DNA of 44,269 nt from Bacteroidales bacterium (GCA_045639985.1 JAZUEE010000073.1:1-44269), one strand, 5' to 3'; positions 1-44,269 are shown, counted from the first letter of the stretch. Translations and numbers: made by a program. Notes: generated by a model not told the origin, from the sequence alone.

Positions 1-141
1 GATGTGCAAATAATGGTGCGCCAATTGGCCTTGATCTACGGCCCGGACAAAGTGGCCAAAGAGATAGACCGAAAGGAACGCCGATTGATTCGCTGGATGG
101 ACAAGGAAAACAAACAATCAAAAGAATAGCGCAGTATGGTA
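1..141. repeat. Terminal direct repeat, exact copy of 44129..44269 (overlap of a circular contig)
   Basis: Direct comparison shows 1-141 identical to 44129-44269. The repeat falls inside the last CDS, so 1..129 duplicates that CDS 3' end including its TAG at 127-129. Confidence 0.95.
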
Positions 142-10589: not shown

Positions 10590-10603
10590 TAAAACAATTG
10601 GAT

Positions 10604-11821
10604 ATGTTACAAATTGAGTTACGGAAATTATCTTCTTTGAAACCGCACCCAGACAACCCGCGCAAATCAGTTCCGGGCGGCGTTGAAAAACTTGCGGAAT
10701 CAATCAAAGGCAATCCAAACTATTTCAATGCAAGGCCGATTGTGCTTTCCAATCGCACAGGCGAGTTTGTGATCATTGATGGCGAACGCAGAAGCGAAGC
10801 TGCATTGTATCTGGGCATGGAACAAGTGCCGACAATCCTCATGGAAGGATTGACATACGAAGATGAGTTGGAAATCCTTGTGAAAGGCAACACCCACACC
10901 GGCGTTTGGGATGAGGTAAAACTTGCCACCGATAAATGGAACGCGGCCAAACTCAAAGAATGGAACTGCGATGCCAAATGGAAAACCCCGGCCAAACCTG
11001 TTTCCGAAGATGATTTTGATGGCAACACGGAAAAGATAATCGTGCGCTGCAAGCCGGGCGATGTGTGGCAGCTTGGCAATCATCGTTTGATGTGCGGCGA
11101 TTCAGTCAAGTTGGAAGATGTGCAAAAGCTGATGGGGGGGGGTACAATAAAAGCTGACATGGTATTTACCGACCCGCCGTATGGCGTTTCTATTGGCGAT
11201 AAAAACAAAATGCTTAACTCCGTTCAGCGGTCGGGAAAGTGTGTTGAAAACATCGCAAATGACACCTTGACATCGGAAGAGTTATACCCTATTCTGGTAA
11301 ACGCCATGACCAATGCAAGGTTGAGTTGCAAGGATGATGCATCATATTTTGTTACTGCACCGCAAGGCGGCGAGTTGGGATTGATGATGATGATGATGAA
11401 GGATGCCGGATTGCCTGTACGCCACAATTTGATATGGCGCAAAAATAGTGCAACCTTCTCATTGGGCAGATTGGATTACGATTACCAACACGAACCGATA
11501 ATATACACGTGGACAAAATCGCACCACAATTACCGAGAAGGAAAGTATCGCACGACAATATGGGACTTTGACAAACCAAGGAAATGCGACTTACACCCGA
11601 CAATGAAACCCGTTGAATTGGTGGCCAATTGCTTGATGGATTGCACAAAAGAAAACGATGTTGTCCTTGATGTGTTCGGCGGCTCTGGTACAACAATGAT
11701 CGCCGCAGAGCAATTGAACCGAAAAGCATGTTTGATGGAGCTTGACCCACACTATTGCGATGTAATAATTGCACGATGGGAGAAATACACAGGCCAACAG
11801 GCTACAAGAATTGAAAATTAG
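10604..11821 (+). CDS. ParB-like nuclease domain fused to an N6/N4 DNA methyltransferase (405 aa)
   Basis: N-terminal ParB-type LKPHPDNPRK...IIDGERR. MTase motif IV is FTDPPYG and motif I is DVFGGSGTTMIAAEQL (beta-class order). The track start 10598 is TTG; the ATG is at 10604. Confidence 0.88.
   Translation: MLQIELRKLSSLKPHPDNPRKSVPGGVEKLAESIKGNPNYFNARPIVLSNRTGEFVIIDGERRSEAALYLGMEQVPTILMEGLTYEDELEILVKGNTHTGVWDEVKLATDKWNAAKLKEWNCDAKWKTPAKPVSEDDFDGNTEKIIVRCKPGDVWQLGNHRLMCGDSVKLEDVQKLMGGGTIKADMVFTDPPYGVSIGDKNKMLNSVQRSGKCVENIANDTLTSEELYPILVNAMTNARLSCKDDASYFVTAPQGGELGLMMMMMKDAGLPVRHNLIWRKNSATFSLGRLDYDYQHEPIIYTWTKSHHNYREGKYRTTIWDFDKPRKCDLHPTMKPVELVANCLMDCTKENDVVLDVFGGSGTTMIAAEQLNRKACLMELDPHYCDVIIARWEKYTGQQATRIEN
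11134..11142 (+). repeat. G9 homopolymer at the ParB/MTase domain junction
   Basis: Read directly as atg ggg ggg ggt. A change of one G in either direction meets a stop within 2-5 codons. Confidence 0.9.
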
Positions 11822-11915: not shown

Positions 11916-12419
11916 ATGGCAAACACAAAGTACAATGCGGAAATAGTAAAGGCGATTTGCGATGAATTGCGCAACGGCGAAAACATTGAACGTGTGTGTG
12001 TAAAGGTGGGGATAACCAAGACCACCTTTTTTGATTGGATCAAGCGCAAACCTAACTTTTCTAACGCCGTACAAAAGGCAAAGGATGAGTTCAGCAAAAC
12101 GATTGTGTCCAAGTTGGAAAAATCGTTGTGGGATGTTGCTATGGGATATTCTTACGAAGAAACAAAGACCGAGTACACAAGCGACAAGAACGGCAACCCA
12201 ATAATCAGCAAGCAGACAACCACCACGAAAAAGGTTGCGCCCAACGTGGCCGCATTGATATTTGCCTTAACGAACCGTGCGCCGGAAGAATGGAAGAATA
12301 GGCAGACAACCGAGGTAAACGCCAATGTCAAGGCCGAGAACGTGAACAAGCCAGATTTGTCGGCCATCCCGGATGAGTTGTTGGGACAGGTGTTGAACAA
12401 GATTAACGGCGGCGAGTAA
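11916..12419 (+). CDS. terS: terminase small subunit (167 aa)
   Basis: N-terminal HTH-type segment (YNAEIVKAICDELRNGENIERVCVKVGITKTTFFDWIKRKPNF) typical of small terminases. TAATG overlap with the large subunit gene. Confidence 0.7.
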   Translation: MANTKYNAEIVKAICDELRNGENIERVCVKVGITKTTFFDWIKRKPNFSNAVQKAKDEFSKTIVSKLEKSLWDVAMGYSYEETKTEYTSDKNGNPIISKQTTTTKKVAPNVAALIFALTNRAPEEWKNRQTTEVNANVKAENVNKPDLSAIPDELLGQVLNKINGGE

Positions 12420-13933
12420 TGGCAAATCTTTCTGCATTGGATTTCAAGATTGAAGGCGCACGCCGTAAATTGTTATGGTTCGCCCAATACATGAACCCAC
12501 GATTCAAGCCAACGCCGTTCCATACTGCGTATTACCGCGTGTTGGATATGTTCGCATCTGGGCAGATTCAAAACCTCATCATCCAGGCACCGCCGCAGCA
12601 TGGCAAATCGGAAGGATCAAGCCGTAATCTTCCGGCCAAGATGTTGGGAATGTTCCCGGACAAGAAAATAATCCTTTGTTCCTATGCTGCCACCATTGCC
12701 AAGGATTTCAACAGGGATGTGCAGAAGCTTATTGACACACCCGAATACAATGCCGTGTTCCCGGATACAACCTTGAATGGTTCAAACGTGGTAACGGTGG
12801 CCGCAAATAGTCTGCGAAATTCCGATGTGTTCCAGATCGTAGGCCACACGGGCGAATTTCGTGTTGTTGGCCGTGGTGGTGCGCTGACATCCAAAACGGC
12901 AGATGTCATGATATTTGATGACTTGTACAAGGATTCAAGCGAAGCAAACTCGCCGATTATCCGTGCCGGTGCATGGGATTGGTACACGAAGGTAGCACGA
13001 ACACGATTGCACAACGATTCGCAACAATTGATTGTGTTTACCCGTTGGCACCCGGAAGATATCATTGGCAAAATCATTGACAACGAACAAGTGATTGTTG
13101 TTGAGAAATGGGCAGATTTTGACAACATACCCAAGGGCGCATGGGTTCTGGTAAACTTTGAAGCAATCAAGACAAGCGACCCCACGGAAATTGACCCACG
13201 TGAAAAGGGTATTGCCCTGTGGAATGACCGCCATAGCATTGAACGATTGGAAGCGATGCGCAAGATTGACCCCGTAGGCTTTCAATGCTTGTACCAAGGT
13301 TCGCCCGGCGATGCGGCGGGCAGATTGTATCAGCCATTCAAGACGTGGGTTGATAAGGCCGATTGGGGAACATTGGTGCGCAAGGGTTGTTACATTGATG
13401 TGGCCGATGAAGGCAACGATTTCTTGGCTGGTGCGACATACGACATTTACAAGTCAACGGAACATGCGTGGAACGAACACAAGAAACGATTTGAGCCGAT
13501 TTTGTATGCGCTGATAACCGATGTCCAGTATACTGATGAGAACACCGATGTAACAACGATTACGGTGCCGCGCATGATAAACGAACAGGGTGCGGAAAAA
13601 GTATGGGTTGAGAGCAACAACGGCGGTTCGCAGTTTGAAAAGACAATCAAACGCAAGGTTCGTGCGATAACGGTGCCATTCTATCAGGGCGCAAACAAGG
13701 AAAGCCGAGTTGTTACCAATGCGCCATTTGTCAACCAATCAATCGTAATGCCGTTTGGATGGGAAACGAGATATCCAAAGTTCTACAAAGCAATTACCGA
13801 GTTTCTCCGTGCCTTTGGTGCAAACGAACACGATGATGCTGCCGATATGCTCACGGGCATCTACGAAAAGGAAATTGCAGACAACAACACAATGCCATAC
13901 GGCCACGCAAACAGGGGTGTGCGTGTTCATTAG
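12419..13933 (+). CDS. terL: terminase large subunit (504 aa)
   Basis: Walker A QAPPQHGKSEGSS, Walker B VMIFDDLYKD, C-terminal nuclease-type acidic motifs (HDDAADML). Confidence 0.88.
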   Translation: MANLSALDFKIEGARRKLLWFAQYMNPRFKPTPFHTAYYRVLDMFASGQIQNLIIQAPPQHGKSEGSSRNLPAKMLGMFPDKKIILCSYAATIAKDFNRDVQKLIDTPEYNAVFPDTTLNGSNVVTVAANSLRNSDVFQIVGHTGEFRVVGRGGALTSKTADVMIFDDLYKDSSEANSPIIRAGAWDWYTKVARTRLHNDSQQLIVFTRWHPEDIIGKIIDNEQVIVVEKWADFDNIPKGAWVLVNFEAIKTSDPTEIDPREKGIALWNDRHSIERLEAMRKIDPVGFQCLYQGSPGDAAGRLYQPFKTWVDKADWGTLVRKGCYIDVADEGNDFLAGATYDIYKSTEHAWNEHKKRFEPILYALITDVQYTDENTDVTTITVPRMINEQGAEKVWVESNNGGSQFEKTIKRKVRAITVPFYQGANKESRVVTNAPFVNQSIVMPFGWETRYPKFYKAITEFLRAFGANEHDDAADMLTGIYEKEIADNNTMPYGHANRGVRVH

Positions 13934-38521: not shown

Positions 38522-39859
38522 ATGGAAAGCGATATGAAACCACAGGTTGCCGAGATTGTACCCGGCATGACCGTTGAAGAAATGGCGGCATTGTATTATG
38601 ATGCCCAGGCTTTGCGAGAAGCACCATACAAAGTGTATCAGTTGAATAGTGATGGCCATCGCTATTATTACCGATTTGATGCCAATGGCGAACCGCATTT
38701 TTACCCAAGTGTAACCACCCTGTTGAAGCAGACAATGCCAACATCGCCGTTCTTGATTGAATGGATGATAAAGAACGGTGCCGAAGGTTCGGTTGAGAAG
38801 CGAGATTTGGCGGCGGCTTACGGCACATTCATGCACGCGCAGTTTGAAAGGCTGATTATCAACAGGTCTTACAATTTTGATGATGTGCCGGGCATCCTGT
38901 TGCAGTACATGGAACAAAACAACTTGCCGGATAAGTTCTATGGCGATTCGTTGACAAAGATACGCAAGGATGTATGCGCGTTTGCGCAGTTCGTACAGGA
39001 TTACAATGTCAAGCCATTGGCCGTTGAGGTTGCATTGGTGCATCCAGATTACCGCTATGCCGGAATGATAGATTTGCCATGCGTAATGACCGATCCAAAG
39101 ACCGGCGAACAATTTTCCGCGATCGTGGATTTCAAGAGTGGCCGCAAAGGCTTCTATGAGGAACACGAAATACAATTGCATCTTTACAAAATGATGTGGA
39201 ATGCAAACAATCTGGGCATGCCAATTAGCCGTGTTTTCAGCTTTTCTCCGAAGGATTGGCGAGGTGTCAAGCCAACGTACAATTTGAAAGATCAGACCGA
39301 TTCGCCCAATGCGGCCAAAATTCCGTCATTGTTGCAGTTGGCAGCGATTGAGGATGGCAAGATAGACAACACATTTACGGTCATTGCCGGTTCCCTGTCG
39401 TTGGATGCCTACAACCCCAAAGCTTGCATAACCTCATTGTCATTGGCCGAACTTATCAAGACCAAGGGCAAGAAGGAAGAAACGCCGGATGTCGGCTTTG
39501 TTCCAGAACAAGGCGAAAGTGAGCCAAAGAAGGGTGTTTCCGTGCCAGAACATGGGGAAAGTGAACGAATTGCCGCCGAATACGACATTTGCGAACATCA
39601 TTGCAAGACGCGTAATTGCGATTACAACTTTGGTTCTCACGGCACGAAATGCGAAGCGGCCAAAGCGGCATCGGAAGGCAAGGACAATTTGGATTGGCTG
39701 AAAACCGATGATGAAAGGGCAGAAGCCGCCGCCAAGGCCGAAAACAAGGCGCGTACAGGCCGAAAGACAACGAAGGTGGACAATGTGCCACCAAAGAAGG
39801 AAAACGCCGTTAAAACGGATTTTTCGCAAAAATTACTGAACACCGAAATTGAATTGTAA
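38522..39859 (+). CDS. PD-(D/E)xK (RecB/Cas4-like) exonuclease with Lys/Glu-rich C-terminal extension (445 aa)
   Basis: Motifs YAGMIDL, IVDFKSG (D-x-K) and EIQLHLY (QxxxY) in the canonical order. Confidence 0.75.
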   Translation: MESDMKPQVAEIVPGMTVEEMAALYYDAQALREAPYKVYQLNSDGHRYYYRFDANGEPHFYPSVTTLLKQTMPTSPFLIEWMIKNGAEGSVEKRDLAAAYGTFMHAQFERLIINRSYNFDDVPGILLQYMEQNNLPDKFYGDSLTKIRKDVCAFAQFVQDYNVKPLAVEVALVHPDYRYAGMIDLPCVMTDPKTGEQFSAIVDFKSGRKGFYEEHEIQLHLYKMMWNANNLGMPISRVFSFSPKDWRGVKPTYNLKDQTDSPNAAKIPSLLQLAAIEDGKIDNTFTVIAGSLSLDAYNPKACITSLSLAELIKTKGKKEETPDVGFVPEQGESEPKKGVSVPEHGESERIAAEYDICEHHCKTRNCDYNFGSHGTKCEAAKAASEGKDNLDWLKTDDERAEAAAKAENKARTGRKTTKVDNVPPKKENAVKTDFSQKLLNTEIEL

Positions 39860-39860
39860 T

Positions 39861-40589
39861 ATGGGCGGCAGAATAGTATGCCCGGACAAGGGCGAAGCCA
39901 AGTTATTGTTGAAGGTTTCAAGCCATCTGCAAATTGGCATGAAGGTAAAAGGCCAGAACGGCAAGGAATACCCGACATCGGTTGATTATTTCATCCCATC
40001 AGGCAAATACGCCGAGGTTTTCACAAGGGCGTATGGCGAAAAGCCTAACACGGTGCAGATCATGTTTGTGGATGATGACCCGGAATTGTCTTGCAACGAG
40101 AGGTTGGAGTATTGGAGTTCAAAGGGCGAGTTGGTGGCGCGTGGCGATGGCCAAACGTTTGAAATCTGGGATGGCAACAAATATGCGCCATACACGGTTG
40201 ACAAATACCCGGATATCATGGCACAGGTTGCGGAACGATGCCCCAAGCCAAAGCGCAACGAGAACGACAACGGATGGGATATTGTGCTGACTTTGCGGTT
40301 TCTCATACCATTGGCAAACGAGGTGTTGTGTTTGTGGGATTTCAAGACCAAGGGCGCAGCATCATCAGTCAACAACATTCGTGACACATACGATGCGGTT
40401 CAAAAGATACGCGGCACGGTTCGCGGTTCGGTTTTTGACTTATCGGTGCAGTTCGCCAAATCAGTCAAGCCGGGCGTGAAATCTCGTTATCCTGTTGTGT
40501 CGTTGACTTGTAATGATTCACAGGTTGCCCGCATACAGGATCATTTGAACAAAACGAGAAATTCAACATTATTGTTGGCTGACAAATAA
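39861..40589 (+). CDS. hypothetical protein (242 aa); possible recombination partner of the upstream exonuclease
   Basis: ATG at 39861; the track start 39849 is TTG. Carries an IMFVDDDPE...GELVARGDGQTF motif. The functional guess rests on position only. Confidence 0.55.
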   Translation: MGGRIVCPDKGEAKLLLKVSSHLQIGMKVKGQNGKEYPTSVDYFIPSGKYAEVFTRAYGEKPNTVQIMFVDDDPELSCNERLEYWSSKGELVARGDGQTFEIWDGNKYAPYTVDKYPDIMAQVAERCPKPKRNENDNGWDIVLTLRFLIPLANEVLCLWDFKTKGAASSVNNIRDTYDAVQKIRGTVRGSVFDLSVQFAKSVKPGVKSRYPVVSLTCNDSQVARIQDHLNKTRNSTLLLADK

Positions 40590-40604: not shown

Positions 40605-40670
40605 CATTGAAATAAACATTGACCACTACCAATGTAAGGAAAAATAACAGGTATTGAACCCTGTAATATT

Positions 40671-40714
40671 CCCGGTATTTTGGTGTGTAGTGGCCCAAGA
40701 TACCGGGATTTTTT
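40671..40714 (+). terminator. Intrinsic terminator/attenuator in the leader of the initiator gene
   Basis: 8-bp stem CCCGGTAT (40671-40678) / ATACCGGG (40700-40707), followed by ATTTTTT, ending 4 nt before the ATG at 40718. Confidence 0.65.
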
Positions 40715-40717
40715 GAT

Positions 40718-41509
40718 ATGGAAGCAAAAACATTTAAGATTGATAACTACATTAATGTTCCGGGATTTGCGGTTGTAGAACATAAATTATCCGGCAATGA
40801 GTTGTTGTGTTATTCGCTGATTTATGGGTTTACGCAAGATGAAGAAACGGAATTTCGTGGTTCATTGACATACGTTGCATCGGCATTGAATATTACAAAA
40901 CAAAATGCCAAAAAGGTTATTGACCGATTATTGGAACGTGGGTTGTTAACCAAAAAAGAAATGTATTTTTCCGGCGTGAAATTTTGCCATTATGTTGCAA
41001 ATCGCAATAGCAATGGCGTTGCTGAAATAGCAACGGGGTGTTGCCGAAACAATAACGGGGGCGTTGCTGAAATAGCAACGGGGGGTATGGCTAAAACAAT
41101 AACGAATAATACTATAAGACATAACTCTAATGATAATATAAAAGATAATATCGCCGATGGCGGTTTATTTCCAACCGCCCCTGTAACATGCGAAAGGAAA
41201 CAACCAGACACCCACGAACCAAGATGCCATTTTGCCGAAAGCAAGTTCAATGCGTTTGCCGACTTTGCCGCGCAGTTTACCGCCCCGGACTTTGCCAACG
41301 TTGACATTGAGTATTACTACAAAGCCGTGGCCGATTGGTCGGCACAGGATGATAAGAACAAGAAAAACGATTGGATTGCAACGGCACGCAACTTTATGCG
41401 CCGTGATGCGGAACAAAAGAAGCTGCACACCTTGGCACAGGTACAACAGGAAACAACAAGCCATCTGGATGATGCAGATTTGAGATACTTGCAGATGTGT
41501 AACGATTAA
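40718..41509 (+). CDS. replication initiator/organiser-like protein with N-terminal winged HTH (263 aa)
   Basis: LSGNELLCYSLIYGF...GSLTYVASALNITKQNAKKVIDRLLERGLL is typical of phage replisome-organiser N-termini. The gene contains an iteron array. Confidence 0.55.
   Translation: MEAKTFKIDNYINVPGFAVVEHKLSGNELLCYSLIYGFTQDEETEFRGSLTYVASALNITKQNAKKVIDRLLERGLLTKKEMYFSGVKFCHYVANRNSNGVAEIATGCCRNNNGGVAEIATGGMAKTITNNTIRHNSNDNIKDNIADGGLFPTAPVTCERKQPDTHEPRCHFAESKFNAFADFAAQFTAPDFANVDIEYYYKAVADWSAQDDKNKKNDWIATARNFMRRDAEQKKLHTLAQVQQETTSHLDDADLRYLQMCND
40994..41083. repeat. Putative origin iterons inside the initiator gene (four GTTGC-N5-GCAAC-type units, about 23-nt period)
   Basis: GTTGC occurs at 40994, 41018, 41040 and 41063. 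The exact 24-nt repeat GGCGTTGCTGAAATAGCAACGGGG lies at 41015-41038 and 41060-41083, each with the inverted repeat GTTGCT/AGCAAC. Confidence 0.65.
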
Positions 41510-41514
41510 GTCTT

Positions 41515-42447
41515 ATGAACGAAATTGCAACATACGAAACAATCCCGGCATCAGTAATGGTGCATACGCCCCCGAAAGGGGCAACGGCCTTGGATTTGCG
41601 CCGCGCCGTGGCAAGGGAAAAGGATTTGATACAATCGTTGCCCATGGTGGAAAGGTCGGTATTCCTTGCGGCATCTGCCAAGGTTGCACAGGAATACGAC
41701 AACGCAGAATTGTCCGCAGAGTTGGGCGAAACAATACCGAGAATCGCACGCGATGTCGGCATACGAACAACAAGCGGCAAGGATTGGGAAAACAACATGG
41801 TTCGCATCGTGCAGATCATGCGCAAGTATTACCCCATGTTCTCCGTGCGTGATGTCCAAATGGCCTTTGAATTGTCGGTTACGGGAGAGTTGAACGACTA
41901 TCTGCCAAAAGACCGATACGGCAACCCGGACAAAGAACATTACCAGATGTTCAACGCCGATTACTTTTGCAAGATAATGAACGCATATCGTGACTTTCGC
42001 AAGGGCGTGTTGAACAAGGTTGCCGACATGGTACCGGCACCCGAACAGGGAATGAGTGATGCCGACAAGTTGTATTACACGAACATCGGAAAGCGCAACA
42101 CAATCAATGCTTTCATCTTCTACAAGTACCACGGATACATGCCGAAGATTTCGCCCATCATGGAAGCCGTTATTTACGAAGAATTGGCAAAGGTGGGATT
42201 GGCAGAGCCGATTGCGGTAACGGTACAGGAACAACGATTGATATTACGCCGCACCCTGTTTGACTTGGGGCAAAGGCATCTAATTGGGGATAAGAACCGC
42301 GTGGCAGCGCAAGGCATCAACGCCCCAGAGATACAACACCCGGCGTTCATGCTGGCGCGATACCGGGCATTGAAAACGGCCTTTGCCGAAATGGTGGCCG
42401 ATGATGTGCAGATTATGGATTATATAAAATACGAAAAGCGAAAATGA
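41515..42447 (+). CDS. hypothetical protein (310 aa), replication-module position
   Basis: ATG ORF 5 nt after the initiator gene. No Walker motif seen. Confidence 0.65.
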   Translation: MNEIATYETIPASVMVHTPPKGATALDLRRAVAREKDLIQSLPMVERSVFLAASAKVAQEYDNAELSAELGETIPRIARDVGIRTTSGKDWENNMVRIVQIMRKYYPMFSVRDVQMAFELSVTGELNDYLPKDRYGNPDKEHYQMFNADYFCKIMNAYRDFRKGVLNKVADMVPAPEQGMSDADKLYYTNIGKRNTINAFIFYKYHGYMPKISPIMEAVIYEELAKVGLAEPIAVTVQEQRLILRRTLFDLGQRHLIGDKNRVAAQGINAPEIQHPAFMLARYRALKTAFAEMVADDVQIMDYIKYEKRK

Positions 42448-43963: not shown

Positions 43964-44257
43964 ATGCAACAATTGAAACCAATGACCGTTCCGATAATGG
44001 CCGTGCGTCATTACGGCGCGGAACACCAGAAGAAGAAAGCCATTGAAGAAATGGGCGAGTTGATAACTGCCTTGTCGCGTGAACAGGATGGCCGAGCCAC
44101 CCCGGAAGAGGTAATAACCGAGATTGCCGATGTGCAAATAATGGTGCGCCAATTGGCCTTGATCTACGGCCCGGACAAAGTGGCCAAAGAGATAGACCGA
44201 AAGGAACGCCGATTGATTCGCTGGATGGACAAGGAAAACAAACAATCAAAAGAATAG
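43964..44257 (+). CDS. MazG-like nucleotide pyrophosphohydrolase (97 aa)
   Basis: AIEEMGELITAL (ExxE) and VITEIADVQIMV (ExxD) match the all-alpha NTP-PPase metal-binding pattern. Start at the ATG at 43964, 1 nt after the upstream stop. Confidence 0.6.
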   Translation: MQQLKPMTVPIMAVRHYGAEHQKKKAIEEMGELITALSREQDGRATPEEVITEIADVQIMVRQLALIYGPDKVAKEIDRKERRLIRWMDKENKQSKE

Positions 44258-44269
44258 CGCAGTATGGTA
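44129..44269. repeat. Terminal direct repeat, exact copy of 1..141
   Basis: Direct comparison of both ends. Confidence 0.95.

Follow-up and report, generated by a model that had tools for sequence, protein, structure and literature searches.

We analysed a 44,269-nt stretch of DNA from a Bacteroidales bacterium (GCA_045639985.1, JAZUEE010000073.1:1-44269; this whole stretch at its full length is hereafter called the window), with regard to an array of short repeats that lies inside the coding sequence of a gene at positions 40718-41509. Comparison with related phages leads us to consider it likely that the segment at about 40994-41151, which comprises the array and an adjoining AT-rich stretch, is a phage replication origin located in that part of the phage's own initiator gene which encodes the linker. 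An initial annotation of this DNA had proposed such an origin, of the type known from gene O of phage lambda, within this initiator-like gene; the comparative evidence supports this proposal, and every prediction from it that could be tested at the sequence level was borne out. We establish here the anatomy of the element, the selection that acts on its DNA, the conservation of the arrangement throughout a family in which the repeat units themselves change, and the synteny with genes for helicases or helicase loaders. By analogy with lambda O and oriλ, the 40718-41509 product would bind, through dimers of its N-terminal winged-helix domain, five dyad-symmetric 17-bp units with A-rich centres, and the resulting nucleoprotein complex on the array would stress and open the adjacent AT-rich stretch at 41104-41151. 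The host replicative helicase would then be recruited by the helical C-terminal domain, probably with the next gene's product (41515-42447) as intermediary.

The repeat array and the AT-rich stretch

The gene and the parts of the putative origin within it are listed below, in the order in which they occur on the DNA.

40718-41509, + strand: initiator-like gene of 263 aa, encoding a winged helix, a disordered linker and a helical C-domain (open reading frame (ORF), phrog_6969, AlphaFold2 (AF2) model)
40718-40999, + strand: region encoding the winged-helix DNA-binding domain, aa 1-94 (AF2, Foldseek)
40994-41010, + strand: unit a, degenerate, GTTGCAAATCGCAATAG, frame 0, 24 nt start-to-start to unit b
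41003-41144, + strand: zone in which synonymous change is suppressed (aa 96-142), spanning units and AT-rich stretch (codon alignment)
41018-41034, + strand: unit b, perfect dyad GTTGCT-GAAAT-AGCAAC, GTTGCTGAAATAGCAAC, frame 0, 22 nt to unit c
41040-41056, + strand: unit c, GTTGCCGAAACAATAAC, frame +1 (peptide CCRNNN), 23 nt to unit d
41063-41079, + strand: unit d, identical to unit b, GTTGCTGAAATAGCAAC, frame 0, 24 nt to unit e
41087-41103, + strand: unit e, ATGGCTAAAACAATAAC, frame 0 (peptide MAKTIT)
41104-41151, + strand: AT-rich stretch, 83% AT, candidate DNA-unwinding element, contains AGATAAT
41210-41509, + strand: region encoding the helical C-terminal domain, aa 165-263 (AF2, predicted local distance difference test (pLDDT) score 85-90)

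In total, the array is made up of five 17-nt units at 40994-41103 with start-to-start spacings of 24, 22, 23 and 24 nt, a distance that corresponds to about two helical turns. The dyads b and d have 6-bp arms around the 5-nt centre GAAAT, and G-runs lie between the units, their place being taken by C-runs in a sister clade. Tandem Repeats Finder (TRF; period 45, 2.0 copies, score 145) resolves the array into a duplicated 45-nt segment, each copy being a pair of units of 22+23 nt, and this score is the highest in the 44-kb window, all other rows scoring at most 47 and mostly about 30-40. The 24-mer GGCGTTGCTGAAATAGCAACGGGG, reported in the initial annotation at 41015-41038 and 41060-41083, was found at both positions. 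It is the longest internal exact direct repeat of the window, the sole longer one being a 141-nt overlap between the contig ends, and its 24 nt compare with 14-16 nt for the longest repeat in 20 shuffles. The motif clusters nowhere else in the window, the matches elsewhere having three mismatches and being at chance level, and the motif scan revealed no second copy of the putative origin in the window. Neither TRF nor the motif scan brought out any other repeat cluster or candidate origin in this genome, for which the initial annotation had called the array the best candidate.

Re-reading of the sequence also allowed the initial description of the units to be refined. The four unit starts at 40994, 41018, 41040 and 41063 are all correct, and the 6-bp inverted repeat GTTGCT/AGCAAC is present in both copies of the 24-mer, making units b and d perfect dyads. 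The four units that had been recognised are thus real, but the array does not end with them at 41083, as a fifth unit at 41087-41103 carries it on to about 41104. The general formula GTTGC-N5-GCAAC is not appropriate for units b and d, in which 5-bp arms would leave a spacer of 7 nt; it suits the degenerate unit a only, in the form GTTGC-N5-GCAAT.

The AT-rich stretch follows directly 3' of unit e. The wider tail (41084-41155) is rich in A when read on the + strand (A 49%, T 25%) and lies at the 99.2nd percentile among segments of 72 nt. AT-rich tails were also found in 12/12 clade representatives of the related arrays described in the next section, and the 50 nt after the array have a mean AT content of 72% as compared to 58% for the gene, a surplus over the gene that is seen in 76 of the 79 related arrays. 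Two motifs recur in these tails despite the differing unit sequences: AGATAAT is common to 9 of the 12 clade representatives and AGATAATA to 8 of them. The shared motifs lie at 41130-41151 in the window and in the tails of the loci L001, L003, L024, L026, L070, L084, L090 and L094. It should be stressed that the enrichment is borderline, as the best shuffled 7-mer occurred in 5.2 tails on average and in 9 at most. AGATAAT is always read as GAT AAT codons, so its sharing may have a cause at the peptide level; the recurrent motif may also be a specific site for unwinding or for a host factor.

Selection on the DNA and conservation in related phages

Codon comparison indicates that the region of the element is under selection at the DNA level in addition to its coding function. 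Seven relatives with 60-68% amino-acid identity have the array and the AT-rich stretch conserved nearly base for base. Synonymous-codon identity, defined as the share of sequence pairs with the same amino acid that also use the same codon in the codon alignment, was 0.83-0.97 over aa 96-142 as against 0.4-0.7 in the N-domain, where the protein is 95-100% identical on the same alignment despite the low codon identity. When pooled, the values were 0.86 inside aa 93-142 and 0.62 outside, and 0 of 10000 random column sets reached the observed synonymous identity. Among all equally sized blocks of the gene, the highest value falls on the element itself, and blocks not overlapping with it reach 0.67 at most. 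The contrast between inside and outside is seen in every class of codon degeneracy (4-fold, 0.87 vs 0.53; 2-fold, 0.86 vs 0.71). An independent clade with units of the GGTTGG type (39 unique genes) gave 0.91-1.00 over array and tail vs about 0.73-0.85 in the N-domain. As no other reading frame stays open throughout the relatives, the constraint is not explained by an overlapping gene, and we rejected this cause.

A different explanation is that slippage has generated a low-complexity peptide repeat in a flexible linker, without any function for the DNA. The region does encode a disordered linker (pLDDT <50), the copy number varies from 2 to 6 among relatives, and the peptide GVAEIATG is duplicated, as the initial annotation had pointed out (aa 100-107 and aa 115-122 in the ORF translation). 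However, the units fall in more than one reading frame in 78 of the 79 related arrays, so the peptide is not what repeats. Units c and e of the window are alike in 13 of 17 bases, yet they encode CCRNNN and MAKTIT, respectively; similar DNA in different frames argues that the repeat is kept as DNA and not as peptide. Amino-acid identity is lower in the element region although the synonymous sites there are the most conserved of the gene, and clades whose unit sequences are unrelated preserve both the dyad symmetry and the spacing. The synonymous constraint and the frame data thus largely refute a mere peptide repeat, which we regard as extremely unlikely.

The arrangement extends well beyond the close relatives. 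Distant homologues (26-42% identity) were found by tblastn in phages of Bacteroides, Parabacteroides, Alistipes and Flavobacterium, and in three sequenced Bacteroides/Parabacteroides phages (31-42% identity) an array with a period of 22-25 bp is located about 290 nt into the gene. The unit is GGTTGG-AAAAT-CCAACC followed by a C-run in BKO1-3 and PD491P1, and GGTGTGGCGAAAATCACC in BF344P1. A profile scan of IMG/VR gave 80 loci, 72 of which have a TRF array with a period of 21-25 bp and about 2-6 copies that starts about 275-300 nt into the gene; the remaining 8, together with the Flavobacterium phage FCOV-F56, have 2-4 units as judged by inspection or unit scan. Statistics on the units cover 79 arrays (75 distinct sequences) among 84 loci. 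Spacings in these arrays range from 20 to 25 nt with modes at 22, 24 and 25, and most arrays contain 4-5 units. A weak first unit, like the degenerate unit a, is also seen in relatives. In loci L084-L086, about 250-340 nt into the gene, two units are oppositely oriented (ATGCATGAAAC ... GTTTCATGCAT); elsewhere all units are direct.

At least nine sequence types of unit were distinguished, all of them with dyad arms around an A-rich centre, and each type goes together with its own predicted recognition-helix sequence. This is illustrated by a close pair, in which the helix TKQNAKKIIDRL of the window clade is found with GTTGCT...AGCAAC and the helix TKANAKAILDRL of locus L024 with TTATTG-AAA-CAATAA. 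As far as sequences can tell, the pairing of unit type and recognition helix fits cognate pairs of protein and site.

With regard to the extent of the family, a single-sequence query gave 475 clusters and a profile search (E <= 0.001) 1101 clusters, nearly all of them unnamed, and the source records name the proteins 'hypothetical' or 'transcriptional regulator'. A second search of the protein database, with the family alignment A1, brought up the same close clade once more without making the list more diverse. Gut and rumen phages of Bacteroidota carry the family in abundance, with isolates on Bacteroides, Parabacteroides, Alistipes and, distantly, Flavobacterium columnare. Against 72,556 plasmids, tblastn gave two matches only, both to the N-domain alone; in the match from a Lachnospira eligens plasmid, an N-domain of 37% identity precedes three units of the form GAGTAAAAA..TTTTAC, after which comes an AT-rich tail. 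It is conceivable, though on the whole doubtful, that the initiator-origin module of the window is one of a very large unannotated family (the 1101 clusters) that reaches across phyla, from Bacteroidota phages to Lachnospiraceae elements, and that the disordered linker of the initiator serves mainly to carry the origin.

The repeats could also act as hairpins in the mRNA, with a role in translation pausing, mRNA stability or attenuation, and not as sites on the DNA. A 6-bp stem is possible for each unit, and 40985-41110 folds as RNA with somewhat greater stability than shuffled sequences do (z = -2.57; 2 of 200 shuffles at least as stable). In the minimum-free-energy fold, however, different units pair with each other and no conserved hairpin per unit is formed, and units c and e are conserved despite weak complementarity of their arms. 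There is no RNA rationale for the 22-25-nt phasing or for the AT-rich stretch, and the inverted units of L084-L086 would be natural for a dyad DNA site. Given that the fold only modestly beats the shuffles and pairs different units, RNA structure was rejected as the main explanation, and we consider mRNA hairpins very unlikely.

The encoded protein and its genomic neighbourhood

The AF2 model places the winged helix at aa 17-94, with helices at aa 26-38, 50-57 and 61-73 and a hairpin at aa 77-94; the recognition helix is predicted at about aa 61-73. The element codes for aa 93-145, and what it encodes is the disordered linker (aa 102-163, pLDDT <50), in agreement with the earlier placement of the repeats in a linker between a winged helix-turn-helix (wHTH) N-domain and a C-domain. 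The C-terminal domain is presumed, by analogy, to be a protein-protein interaction domain. Foldseek matched the N-domain to dimers of the MarR family (best E 2e-4), many of which have been solved on palindromic DNA, and this fits the dyad symmetry of the units.

In profile searches against PHROGs, the window protein matched phrog_6969 (1.2e-21), phrog_270 (8e-6) and phrog_678 (2e-5), of which the last two are both labelled replication initiation. Relatives matched phrog_678, 'replication initiation O-like', over their full length and down to 3e-26, as well as PHROGs named 'replication initiation protein' and 'DnaD-like helicase loader'. The profiles considered for phage initiators of the HTH_36/DnaD_N type were phrog_6969, phrog_270 and phrog_186. 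Pfam matches in homologues were HTH_36 (3e-9, above cut-off) and DnaD_N (2.8e-6), while the window protein itself gave MarR matches only, all sub-threshold, and no match to DnaD_N at E < 0.1. A sequence search of the PDB with the family profile returned only sub-significant matches to SarX/MarR.

Several further features were noted in and around the gene. An 'LFP' motif at 41153-41173 (aa 146-152, ADGGLFP), situated in the disordered linker just past the AT-rich tail, is found in 71 of 84 homologous loci and may be a short linear interaction motif. It is overlapped by a GC-rich mini-hairpin, ATCGCCGATGGCGGT (41150-41164), that was picked up by a terminator scan. Directly upstream of the initiator ATG (40665-40717), an inverted repeat (40665-40683 / 40695-40713, 84% complementary) is followed by TTTTTT and could be a terminator or attenuator controlling transcription into the putative origin. 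The intergenic region upstream of the initiator gene is poorly kept among relatives (50% column identity).

The initiator-like gene is followed by one further gene of interest:

41515-42447, + strand: next gene, 310 aa, phrog_34953, all-alpha product (AF2 pLDDT 89)

Its product had no fold match in the PDB (Foldseek, best E 0.1), gave an hhalign probability of 0.28% with lambda P and is not homologous to the downstream protein of FCOV-F56. The gene is kept beside the initiator gene in the B. fragilis phage clade. Some relatives have the same N-domain and array but another C-domain. In these, the slot is filled by a DnaB-like helicase in L070, L084 and L085, by a DnaC-like loader in L090, by a 'helicase loader' in L088 and by a RecA-fold helicase-like protein in FCOV-F56, and the L. 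eligens homologue has an AAA+ ATPase and then a DnaB-like helicase downstream. Because the 41515-42447 gene lies in the slot where relatives encode a helicase or a loader, its product is a candidate new helicase loader, and it may represent a new class of loader that captures the Bacteroidales DnaB helicase.

This synteny also bears on the possibility that the array is a cis site to which the same winged-helix protein binds for autoregulation or another role unconnected with an origin (an operator or a roadblock), initiation taking place elsewhere. MarR-like wHTH dimers typically regulate transcription by binding to palindromes, a homologue is called a 'predicted transcriptional regulator' in one source, and constraint at the DNA level shows a cis element but not its kind. 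Nevertheless, we find such a regulatory site unlikely: it would leave unexplained the 4-5 phased copies, the synonymous constraint on the AT-rich stretch itself, the conserved adjacency to genes for helicases or loaders and the family's links to phage replication initiators, and it would have to be reconciled with a genome in which no other repeat cluster or candidate origin stands out. A replication origin remains our preferred explanation for the array.

The wider genomic context is that of a phage. The first 141 nt of the window (1-141) are identical to the last 141 nt (44129-44269), an assembly overlap which indicates that the 44,128-bp phage genome is complete and either circular or circularly permuted. 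The + strand carries all long ORFs, and the replication module runs across the contig junction. GC skew is uninformative, all genes lying on one strand and the cumulative curve being monotonic. Thirteen sequencing runs (Logan contigs) are listed for the window sequence, 10 of which contain <=38% of the sampled 31-nt words. Scans of 25 window ORFs against PHROGs (those of the replication region and other long non-structural ORFs on the + strand) detected no helicase, primase or polymerase; the same scans found SSB, a DnaQ-like exonuclease, recombination nucleases and a Holliday-junction resolvase. The annotated relative BKO1-3 is likewise without helicase, primase and polymerase. With none of these enzymes of its own detected, the phage must recruit those of the host, like lambda.

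Between a PD-(D/E)XK exonuclease gene and the initiator gene lies a gene for a Gp3-like protein (39849-40589, + strand; Pfam PF18897, 'recombination directionality factor-like', 1e-31), in an order that is kept in BKO1-3 and PD491P1; the window phage is apparently integrase-less, though it carries this gene. At 10598-11821 (+ strand), a ParB-like N-terminal domain is encoded in fusion with a DNA methyltransferase (phrog_498 3e-103 plus ParB-like PHROGs), just upstream of the genes for the small and large terminase subunits (11916-13933). Packaging (pac) sites and centromere-like partition sites can be short repeat arrays, and with a ParB-domain protein encoded in the genome such a role for the array may be thought of. 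Still, the ParB domain is fused to a methyltransferase, and the array is found in the replication/recombination module about 15 kb from the terminase genes on the circular map; it always accompanies the wHTH initiator-like gene and not the terminase. We therefore attach very little probability to a packaging or partition site.

Comparison with known replication systems and significance

The origin proposed here shares with oriλ the position in the middle of the initiator gene, in the linker part between a DNA-binding N-domain and a C-domain. Both have 4-5 units of 17-18 bp with 6-bp arms around an A-rich centre of 5-6 nt, start-to-start spacings of 20-24 bp and, immediately 3' to the units, an AT stretch whose coding strand is rich in A. 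In the annotated oriλ, four 18-bp units TCCCTC-AAAAC-GAGGGA are spaced by 20, 24 and 23 nt in an array that starts 348 nt into the 900-nt gene O, and an A-rich AT stretch and then gene P follow. The next gene begins a few bases past the stop codon of the initiator gene in the window as in lambda, and the PHROG-scanned ORFs of the window are likewise without a replicative helicase or polymerase. The lambdoid origin is described as lying mid gene O and consisting of iterons and an AT-rich tract, each iteron being an inverted repeat, and in Stx phages O is longer by 13 residues owing to two additional iterons (PMC7466680). A change in unit number thus alters the length of the initiator protein in those phages, as copy-number variation does in the family studied here. 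There are also differences. The 41515-42447 gene is unrelated to P and without a known fold, although analogous in position, the units of the window are set apart by the G-runs (or C-runs in the sister clade) mentioned above, and the hosts are Bacteroidota and not enterobacteria.

Some of the results weigh against a replication origin of this type. Direct homology to lambda O, for which Pfam Phage_rep_O (PF04492) and phrog_277 served as family references, was not detected: hhalign of lambda O with alignment A1 gave a probability of 0.06, and the window protein had no match to Phage_rep_O at E < 0.1. Moreover, the window protein itself matches the initiator PHROGs weakly (8e-6 and 2e-5), no helicase-loader fold could be recognised in the product of the downstream gene, and phylogeny confounds the co-variation between unit and recognition helix. 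The match of lambda O to phrog_678 is at 1.7e-35, and this transitive connection is its sole link to the window family. In view of the negative hhalign and Phage_rep_O results, the functional analogy with O rests on anatomy and on weak transitive family links, and homology of the window protein to O is possible but unproven.

Other systems resemble the module in part. In phage SPP1, oriL is located inside gene 38, which encodes the initiator G38P, and is followed by the genes for the loader G39P and the helicase G40P. Initiators of Firmicute phages of this DnaD-like or replisome organiser kind thus have in common with the window a winged-helix origin binder whose origin is in its own gene, with loader and helicase genes next to it, and it is relatives of the window protein that match DnaD_N and the 'DnaD-like helicase loader' PHROG. 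The dyads of the window, with their A-rich centre, are nevertheless nearer to those of lambda, and no second copy of the putative origin was found. Iteron plasmids (pSC101, R6K, RK2, F and P1; Rep_3-type) share phased repeats of about 22 bp, a winged-helix initiator and an AT-rich unwinding element. In these plasmids the iterons are found outside rep and are bound, as direct repeats, by monomers that have two winged-helix domains, whereas the units of the window are dyads inside a coding sequence. That each unit is a dyad suggests binding by dimers, and the window protein had no match to Rep_3 in Pfam. For the plasmid systems, iteron repeats bound by a winged-helix initiator beside an AT-rich unwinding element are described in PMC4980987.

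In the papers searched on iterons and origins in Bacteroides, Flavobacterium and rumen phages, we found no description of the element; one paper on rumen phages proposed a terminal 15-nt overlap as origin, which is unrelated to the array of the window. The arrangement itself is classical and known from lambda, and what is new is its occurrence in an unannotated protein family of Bacteroidota phages. As a textbook arrangement, it should interest the specialist rather than surprise. The analysis flags the well-folded, uncharacterised neighbour protein as a candidate new helicase loader, and the unit types, at least nine in number and with distinct recognition helices, offer a natural series for studying DNA recognition by winged-helix proteins and origin incompatibility. 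Genetic tools are limited in Bacteroidales, for which the element (about 160 bp) and one or two genes make up a candidate minimal replicon. For a family so far recorded as 'hypothetical' or 'transcriptional regulator', the interpretation put forward here would provide a functional annotation as replication initiator and origin.

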